Below are positions 47,774 to 50,163 of a DNA stretch of 64,000 nucleotides, piece by piece; the first letter of the stretch is position 1; every line of letters starts with the position of its first letter. The stretch comes from Leucoraja erinacea. Taxonomy: Eukaryota. The translations under genes were made by a program, and so were the position numbers. Under the pieces are notes generated by a model, which made no database searches, was not told the DNA's origin, and saw only the letters and a program-made list of their open reading frames with translations. The DNA lies in assembly GCF_028641065.1 (NCBI RefSeq), contig NC_073402.1, positions 17,608,001-17,672,000 on the forward strand. The letters run 5' to 3'.

Positions 47774-49675
47774 ATTCCACTTACATTTTGAAACTCATCT
47801 GCCTTTGTTTATTCAAACCACAATGTGGAATTATTTTATAGACACTTCTAACTCCTAGAATAAAGGTTTGCAGGTGTGGTGGGACCGAGAGACCAATAAA
47901 AAGTATACACTTTTTAATTAAGCTACTTTTTGGTACAATGTGGCAATATAAACTTAACATTGCTATCTTAACATGGATTCCATCTAGCTATTTCCATTTT
48001 CATTTCATATTTTGTTTCTACTGGGAACAAATGCATTGGAAAAGCCACCGGTGTGTAAATATGTGAAATAGATAGAATGTGGGATTGGGTGAATGCACAG
48101 TCTTTACCCAGTCATGTTATCAAAATCAGAGGACCGGTTTAAGGTGAGAAGGGAAAGATTTAATAGGCTTTAAAGGAAACCTGAGGGGCAACTTTTTTTA
48201 TACAGAAGGTGGTGGATATATGGAACAAGCTGCCAGGGGAGGTGGTTGAGATAGGAACTGTAACAACATTTCAAAGACATCTGGACAGGTAAATGGATAG
48301 GAAAGATTTCGAGGGATATGGGCCAAACACAGACTGGTGGGACATGTAGATGGGGCAACTGGGTTGACAAGGGCAAGTTGGGCCAAAGGACCAGATTCTG
48401 TGCTGTATGACTAAATTGCCTAATAAGCATATGAGGAGAATCTGCAAGATGTTAAGATATGTATTCCTTTTCTCCAGCGATGCTGCCTGACATGCTGAAT
48501 TACTCCAGCATTTTCAGAGTCTGTGATCACGTCAGCATTTTTCGTGAATGTCAGAGATTGGAGTAACTCAGCATCGCCCTTTTACACAGAAAAGCTGGTT
48601 AATTAGGCATTTCGCTGATCGGGGGTGGGGGTGGGTGGGGACAAGAAAGGGAAAAGGAGGAGTAGCCAGAAGGCTGGAGGGTGGGAGGAGACAGCAGGGG
48701 AGCTGAGGAAGGGGAGGAGACAGCAAGGACTAACAGAATCCTGGTTCATGCCAACAAGGAGGAGACCCAGGACAGAGAGGTCGGAGGCGGAGTGGGAGGG
48801 GGAGTTGAAATGCTGAGACCGGGAGGTAACGGACCGAGCGGAGGTGTTCGCAAGTCCGCTTGGTCAGATCTGCTCTCTGGAGCGGAATCCCTTGCATCTC
48901 TTCTCTCTCTGTCCATCCTTCCCCCACCCATTGTACTAGTATCACTGTTGTCCTGGTGAGTTTCATTGTATGTATAACTCGATTTCACCTACCCCACAGC
49001 TAAAAAGATACTGTTTCCTTTACCATGTTTAAGAAAGAACTGCAGATGCTGGAAAAATTGAAGTAGACAAAAATGCTGGAGAAATTCAGCGGGTGAGGCA
49101 GCATCTATGGAACGAAGGAAGAGGTGACATTCCGGGTCGAGACCCTTCAGACGTTTGTGGGGGTGGGGCGGGAAGAAGAAAGGAAGAGGTGGAGACAGTG
49201 GGCTGTGGGAGAGCTGGGGAAAAGAGGGAGAAAGCAAGGACTACCTGAAATTGGAGGTCAATGTTCATAACGCTGGGGTGTAAAATACCCAAACAAAATA
49301 TGAGGTGCTGCTCCTCCAATTTGCGGTGGGACTCACTCTGGCCATGGAGGAGGCCCAGGACAGAAAGGTTGGATTTGGAATGGGAGGGGGAGTTGAAGTG
49401 CTGAGCCACCGGGAGATCAGGTTGGTTATTGTGGACTGATTTGGGGAAACTATTGAATGTATGTACAGCCTCCGAGAATGTCGGATGGAATTTTGTATGG
49501 ATCTTGTATATAATTATTTCTCGTATAAAGTATATTTTGAGAATTTAAAAAAAGTTATTGTGGACTGAGCAGCGGTGTTGGGCGAAGCCATCGCCAAGCC
49601 TAGAGCAGCTGACACCTAGAGCAGCGATGCAGTAAATGAGGTTGGAGGAGGTGCAGGTGAACCCCAGCCGCACCT

Positions 49676-49817
49676 TCTTCTTCTCCTTGCGCATGCCGTG
49701 CACAGCCTAAAGTTGGAGGACAACTTGTTCTATTTGATCTTATTTGTTTGTGCACACCGGGTTGATTGCATTTGCCGAAACAGGGCGGACCACGTGAAGG
49801 TTGCAATCTCCCACCCC
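49676..49817 (-). mobile_element. 142-nt non-autonomous retroposon (Vingi/Ingi-like) with 5' HDV-like ribozyme and (GAA)n tail
   Basis: Inserted in a Penelope remnant; TSD about 13 bp with perfect core GCCGCACCT (49667-49675 and 49822-49830); 3' end ...GCATGCGCAAGGAGAAGAAGA; no pol III A/B boxes. Confidence 0.8.
49764..49817 (-). ncRNA. Minimal (P4-less) HDV/CPEB3-like self-cleaving ribozyme
   Basis: GGGGUGG GA GAUUGCA ACC UUCACGU GGU CCGCCCU GU UUCG G C AAA UGCAAUC: P1 7 bp with G1-U wobble, P2 7 bp perfect, P3 3 bp, L3 UUCACGU, catalytic C at 49774. Confidence 0.85.
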
Positions 49818-49986
49818 ACCTGCCGCACCTGGAAAGACTAGTTAGGTCCTTGGATGGAGTCAAGGGGGGAGGTGAAGCGACAGGTGTAGCATTTCCTGCG
49901 GTTGCAAGGGAAAGTACCAGGGGAGGGGGTGGTTTGGGACGGAATTGACCAGGGAGCGGTCTCTGCAGATCATCGTTAATTTTATG

Positions 49987-50163
49987 TTTAAGAGGGAACT
50001 GCAGATGCTTAGAATCGAAGGTTACACAAAAAAGCTGGAGAAACTCAGCGGGTGCAGCAACGTTTTCGGGCTGAAGAAGGGTTTCGGCCCGAAACGTTGC
50101 CTATTTCCTTCGCTCCATAGATGCTGCTGCACCCGCTGAGTTTCTCCAGCTTTTTTGTGTAAC
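49987..50163. repeat. Palindromic Penelope pLTR insertion with hammerhead core (50071-50098, +) and 16-bp TSD
   Basis: TSD catcgttaattttatg (49971-49986 and 50164-50179); 40-bp perfect inverted arms; CTGAAGAAGGGTTTCGGCCCGAAACGTT. Confidence 0.85.

Follow-up and report, generated by a model that had tools for sequence, protein, structure and literature searches.

What kind of mobile sequence is 142 nt long, codes for no protein and begins exactly where a self-cleaving RNA fold would begin? The question is raised by an element on the minus strand of a 64,000-nt stretch of Leucoraja erinacea DNA (hereafter the window), which runs from a G (G1) at position 49817 down to 49676. A preliminary description, made from the letters of the window, had taken it for a SINE-like family dependent on a Vingi/Ingi LINE and headed by an HDV/CPEB3-like ribozyme. 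Our analysis points to an element that joins the opening ~78 bases of a Vingi-like LINE to its final ~48, is inserted at thousands of sites and has a 54-base predicted HDV-like head that likely cuts the RNA out before G1; we assign this reading a probability of about 0.85.

A predicted HDV-like ribozyme without P4

Read on the minus strand from 49817, the head of the element forms a nested double pseudoknot of P1, P2, P3 and P1.1 in a total of 54 nt (49764 to 49817), and 18 of 18 pairs form. P1 joins 49817-49811 to 49788-49782 through five G-C pairs and two wobbles, G1.U and U5.G, and by sequence and covariation encloses J1/2, the 5' strand of P2, P3 and L3 (49782 to 49817). J1/2 is a 2-nt GA between the 5' strands of P1 and P2. 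P2, seen in both sequence and covariation, has 7 Watson-Crick pairs (49808-49802 with 49770-49764), and P3, ACC/GGU, carries the loop L3, UUCACGU (49801-49789). P1 is followed at 49775 to 49781 by a G-U, which supplies the single C22-G37 pair of P1.1, and by a 5-nt linker that replaces P4, as seen in the copies and families described below. The predicted catalytic cytosine, equivalent to C75 and followed by AAA, is at 49774, and from the position of the fold the cut is predicted between 49818 and G1.

This reading reproduces the helices, J1/2, L3, G-U, catalytic position and total length of the preliminary description and amends it in its details. P4 is absent, as stated there, but the replacement is a 5-nt linker (UUCGG in the window copy, UUCGA in the family) and not a 4-nt UUCG loop. 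Its J4/2, G-C-AAA, is right for the window copy but private to it, the family majority being A-C-G-A-A with a variable third base.

A strict descriptor of the fold finds one site in the whole window, the head at 49817, and 0 sites in 100 shuffled windows in which dinucleotide frequencies were kept. A model built from 18 heads of sister LINEs, with the element excluded, places 49817-49780 at the top of the window with 30 bits, the next score being 12. Against these positive results, the proposed Infernal search gave only a sub-threshold match to an HDV model, HDV-F-prausnitzii (RF02682), which aligns exactly at 49817-49764 with 18.3 bits (cut-off 44, E 2.6), and the CPEB3 model RF00622 (cut-off 35 bits) was not matched by the window element. 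The heads of two further loci, L004 and L443, did not reach the cut-offs of the HDV-like Rfam models either. The HDV-like models tested here include P4, which the window head lacks, and RF00622 goes unmatched because the stems of the element differ from those of CPEB3 and P4 is absent.

The same features could be those of a ribozyme relic, inactive since the loss of P4 and kept as a protective or protein-binding structure, with G1 as the transcription start. The single P1.1 pair, the missing P4, the 5-nt linker and the sub-threshold Rfam score would fit such a relic, as would a competing pairing of the 5' G-run offered by nested-only folding. The stability of the 142 nt under nested-only folding is not unusual (z +1.48), a value that says little on the ribozyme fold since such folding cannot score a pseudoknot. 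HDV-like ribozymes without P4 are, however, active in vitro (PMC10879173) and a one-pair P1.1 is compatible with fast cleavage (PMC13635239), which makes a dead fold less likely; the parent LINE and many subfamilies have also spread with this head, and the frequent variants leave the catalytic C untouched (see below). We consider an inactive relic unlikely. By its fold, G1 and catalytic C, the window head is likely an HDV-like ribozyme, with self-cleavage as a prediction of the model.

Compensatory changes in sister LINE families

Heads were recovered from 17/26, 20/30 and 7/30 loci of the sister LINE families A, E, and F, respectively. They have the same 7-2-7-3-7-3-7 spacing in other letters and a real P4 in the form of an 18- to 40-nt hairpin, whereas the linker of the element has no fold. 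Across the majorities of the element and families A, E, and F, 72/72 cells of the pairing table are paired, and 12 of the 18 pairs are doubly changed, among them the P1.1 pair and one pair of P3; strands combined across families pair in only 6-11 of 14 positions. The catalytic C is present in all four majorities, within a J4/2 of C-A-G-A in family A. The head of family B also forms 18/18 pairs, while in family H, represented by 3 decayed copies, one additional base precedes P3, and its heads do not fit the pairing table and were left out of it. Covariation in P1 and P2, suggested earlier as a check, is therefore present, and the HDV-like fold is supported, at the level of aligned sequences, by compensatory changes in sister LINE families.

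Family E, with 798 candidates for its 5' region, makes its own two-end derivatives of ~200 nt (L241, L262, and L268), the heads of which have P4. Many family E heads (L192-L214) have the same flank upstream, carry A in place of G1 and occur as pairs separated by ~1.8 kb, and so belong to a further duplicated unit.

Boundaries and parentage of the element

The element is flanked by a 13-nt target site duplication (TSD), of which the 5' copy (49818 to 49830) directly abuts G1 and is identical at 11/13 positions to the 3' copy (49663 to 49675) adjoining the tail, in agreement with the boundary originally placed at G1. Comparison with the ends of the parent LINE, described below, resolves the sequence in between. 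The 5' part (49740 to 49817) comprises the ribozyme and the start of the 5' UTR, including GTGCACA at 49755-49749. The 3' part (49676 to 49723) runs from the last ORF codons through a stop codon (49709-49707) and a 17-nt 3' UTR, which includes TGTGCAC (49704-49698), to the GAA tail (49689-49676); the stem and the tail noted earlier are thus both present. Between them, a deletion junction of ~16 nt (49724 to 49739) is absent from both LINE ends and may, from its appearance, be a local duplication. Compared with the majority sequence of 16 parent heads, which were picked via an anchor spanning element positions 43-50, the window copy is identical at 68/74 positions (element positions 5-78); compared with that of 17 parent 3' ends, it is identical at 35/41 (positions 95-135).

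Elsewhere in the window, a long inverted repeat at 50038-50146, in which a common short repeat occurs twice in opposite orientations, gives spurious Rfam hairpin matches. The two halves of the GTGCAC stem (49749-49755 and 49698-49704) sit at opposite ends of the 3-kb parent copy L470, so the LINE RNA may pair end to end.

The parent is seen from both sides. In L274, one of 90 copies picked by their 3' end, the final codons of a Vingi-like C-terminus, together with the stop, 17-nt UTR and tail that follow them, make up the 3' end of the element. At parent 5' ends, the same P4-less head and element positions 1-78 continue into an endonuclease ORF, and in L470 and L471 the head, ORF and tail lie inside one TSD. 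There are 664 parent candidates for the 3' part and 37 for the 5' ORF start; among the parent copies examined, every ORF is broken. Parent pieces match PF14529 and PF00078 and gave no match to an RNase H domain; the same is true of P0001, a protein of 1019 aa that is their closest database match (78% over the RT piece). The Pfam matches on the parent pieces and P0001 agree with the architecture by which Vingi elements are defined, a single ORF with APE endonuclease and RT, and no RNase H (PMC13708176). By architecture and an RT motif the parent appears Vingi-like, the RT tree holding only unnamed relatives. The predicted dependence on a Vingi-type LINE, and the existence of an autonomous partner sharing both ends, are supported by L274, L470 and L471. 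Some parent copies (L424, L430, L431, and L433) have an inverted 5' part, as in twin-priming insertions.

A search with an RT motif had yielded 187 matches in at least nine LINE families, most of which have a short UTR, then CG and a GAA tail at their 3' end. None of these families shares the element body, and the parent was missed by this search because its own motif differs. Three patterns for a LINE with the element's own head matched, among the matches listed, only short copies or family A and E heads. As candidate parents, families A, E, F, C, H, I, K, and L were discarded, their similarity to the body or 3' end being not clearly above that of shuffles; the best, to one family E 3' end, was reached by 7/300 shuffles.

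The element has both ends of one autonomous LINE and no ORF, as a SIDE or bipartite LINE does. Short, non-coding, flanked by a TSD and ending in a simple-repeat tail, it might pass for an ordinary pol III SINE, and its head for a chance fold. In a promoter search that covered the pol III boxes, A and B box patterns were unmatched in the element, and no tRNA gene was found in the window; both ends of the element derive from a LINE, and a chance fold would have to account for 0 descriptor sites in the shuffled windows and for full covariation. An ordinary SINE or a chance fold is so improbable that we give it practically no weight. The label SINE-like is accordingly withdrawn: as judged from its two ends, the element is an internally deleted LINE, and its P4-less head was evidently inherited from the LINE and did not arise within the short derivative.

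Copies, 5' ends and variation of the family

A search of the 2.19-Gb host genome found 955 exact matches to the first 38 nt and 2,354 to the 3' 24-mer, with 0 for controls; the family is dispersed. Capture-recapture (8/90 copies picked by their 3' end carry the exact head) gives ~7,000-11,000 copies, a rough figure inflated by a duplicated segment. That segment, represented by L007 and 17 other loci (e.g. G000:C2:15875165-15878306), is at least 3 kb long, occurs on many contigs with 90-98% identity and holds a single insertion; in one fetched set it accounted for 18/30 loci, which were counted once. An active head would cut any RNA-based spread of this segment in the sense direction.

To describe 5' ends we used the first 90 of the 2,354 matches to the 3' 24-mer, all on contig C1 and unselected for their 5' end. 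Alignment begins at positions 1-6 in 76/90 copies and at position 1 in 58/90. A TSD, mostly 9-13 bp long, was called in 74/90, with its end within -1 to +2 of G1 in 55 of the 74. Copies thus begin at or near G1, as had been expected, and the TSDs, the tail and some 5'-truncated copies are hallmarks of target-primed reverse transcription (TPRT). No upstream sequence is common to the copies among 68 ungapped heads. The base before G1 is T in 45/68 copies and TSDs usually start with A (L161-L190, L271-L330), which suggests an endonuclease nick 3' of T on both strands. Copies of the element show an apparent excess near Vingi loci. A subfamily (L246, L249-L251, L255, and L264) has another tail start, a shorter middle and tails resembling those of other Vingi-like families, possibly reflecting a switch of mobilising partner.

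After three copies with a truncated or inverted head were dropped, 74 full-length copies diverge from the family majority by 6.6% on average, and every pair and core base is intact in 16 of them, the window copy included. Copies decay after insertion, so conservation among them is not itself selection. The frequent head variants are at position 8 in J1/2 (28/74), position 32 (19/72, from G.U to U-A), the linker CpG at 41-42 and position 45, the base after the catalytic C (31/73). The catalytic C itself (C44) is changed in 3/74 copies; within the same CpG, C44>T occurs 3 times and G45>A 15 times (p 0.008). The tolerated changes look like variants of source lineages, and loss of the catalytic C was apparently not propagated.

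No RNA run was listed among the holders of the family. It is present, with loose ends at 49817-49818, in contigs from four sequencing runs of four organisms; the run type (RNA or DNA) was guessed, and loose contig ends cannot show transcription or RNA ends. The head pattern had no match in metagenome contigs.

Proposed mechanism of mobilisation

The ends shared with the parent LINE, its P4-less head, a TSD boundary at G1, the number of copies and the compensated stems suggest the following path. Loss of P4 would have preceded the internal deletion, within the LINE lineage. A copy of the element in a transcribed region would be read through, and the head would fold and cleave the RNA 5' of G1, its stable fold probably protecting the uncapped end. 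The endonuclease/RT protein of the parent may then bind the 3' end and GAA tail, and the RNA would be copied into a new site by TPRT, leaving a TSD of 9-13 bp.

As the main rival reading, an active ribozyme head could double as an internal pol II promoter, in which case the element would not depend on read-through and would not be promoterless. The Pr77 hallmark of the sister Ingi clade has such a dual role: a single stretch of 77 nt in L1Tc acts as both promoter and ribozyme (PMC4035085), and NARTc is a further example. Kojima (2018) expects bipartite LINEs to be transcribed by pol II from LINE 5' signals (PMC5786205), and about 7,000-11,000 copies would be a large output for read-through alone. 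On the other hand, the stems differ freely between families (21-38/49 core identity) with pairing kept, a pattern that fits a constraint on RNA better than one on a DNA motif. We regard a promoter function as possible but doubtful, and retain read-through followed by cleavage as the preferred route.

Probable link to the mammalian CPEB3 ribozyme

The preliminary description had likened the window head to the CPEB3 ribozyme (RF00622) and the family to a mobile source of such ribozymes. The 7-2-7-3-7-3-7 spacing, L3 UUCACGU and the G-U after P1 indeed agree with the consensus line in Rfam, but the score does not, and the claim is supported for the clade and not for the element. Among 20 upstream stretches fetched for families B, C, and H, 2/6 of family B match RF00622, with 62.2 and 57 bits (L560:688-761 on G000:C3, and L558), and each match runs into an endonuclease ORF. 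A metagenome locus, L506:1117-1189, reaches 55.6 bits against the cut-off of 35 bits; met three times, it is one locus, a full-length Vingi-like LINE flanked by a TSD. Among 27 metagenome loci of distant relatives, the sister-head model places a head (E below 0.01) shortly before the ORF in 6, L506 being one of them. The strict descriptor finds heads in only 5/30 metagenome loci, 3 of them one locus, and descriptors with A or G replacing the catalytic C also passed 2-3 metagenome loci.

An RT tree of unnamed relatives, rooted at the midpoint and leaving out L536 and L511 because of their short cover, joins family B and L506 as sisters with a support of 0.97; E and L501, and C and L491, are also sisters. 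The heads of the B/L506 and E/L501 pairs share 38/49 positions, compared with 21-38/49 overall, and head similarity seems to follow the RT tree; the L487 head also shares 38/49 with the element, though L487 is not the parent's sister in the tree. Since stems are free to vary between families, descent is the best reading of stems that nearly match those of CPEB3. These comparisons support CPEB3 kinship at the level of the clade, not of the window head itself, and the CPEB3-like head of a sister LINE likely points to the origin of the CPEB3 ribozyme, with the direction and donor clade deduced from the sequences. On balance we favour the view that Vingi LINEs, as a clade, inherit a compact HDV-like head with their RT, one lineage having given rise to an active 54-nt core and the 142-nt replicator and another to the mammalian CPEB3 ribozyme as a domesticated 5' end. 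Human DNA retains a Vingi trace (PMC5753468). In the accessible portions of the literature searched, no proposal of a Vingi origin for the CPEB3 ribozyme was found, and other papers, Repbase and patents may hold parts of it. With the head of one family far above the model cut-off despite free stems, the origin of the mammalian ribozyme becomes testable.

Comparison with known systems

Some LINEs and SINEs are already known to use HDV-like ribozymes (PMC6765202), and because NARTc, RIME, SIDER, the R2 SIDEs and Vingi derivatives have been described, the kind of element is not new. What appears new is a predicted ribozyme in Vingi, the occurrence of its minimal form in an animal genome and the likely connection to CPEB3. 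The accessible parts of the literature found assign no ribozyme to Vingi, and earlier papers, Repbase and patents may hold parts of this picture. Vingi would join the LINE clades that carry ribozymes, a point relevant to Kojima's question why two-end derivatives arise in some clades only (PMC5786205). Vingi elements with their native 5' UTR are also under development as gene insertion tools (PMC13708176), and a 142-nt natural template would define the minimal cis signals for such insertion.

The closest counterparts are NARTc, RIME, and SIDER, derived from L1Tc/ingi of trypanosomatids, a sister clade. They too are short and non-coding, keep LINE ends and have a 5' HDV-like ribozyme (PMC4035085), whereas the element described here has an animal host, a Vingi-like parent without RNase H, a length of 142 nt and a predicted 54-nt P4-less head. 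The R2 SIDEs of Drosophila similarly join a 5' ribozyme to a LINE 3' end and are mobilised in trans by TPRT (PMC3414825), but they are rare; the element is not rDNA-specific, has an APE-type parent and exists as thousands of dispersed copies. With bipartite Vingi derivatives, e.g. those of Vingi-1_EE (PMC5786205), it shares the internal deletion of a Vingi-type LINE. The head itself most resembles drz-Mtgn-1 and the theta ribozymes, in which P4 is also absent and the catalytic C comes first in J4/2. According to the accessible text of PMC10879173, those ribozymes are nearly 99% phage-borne and often lie beside tRNAs, while the head of the element belongs to a retroposon of an animal genome. 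An HDV-like fold without P4, hitherto almost confined to phages, would thus be present in an animal genome as thousands of natural variants.
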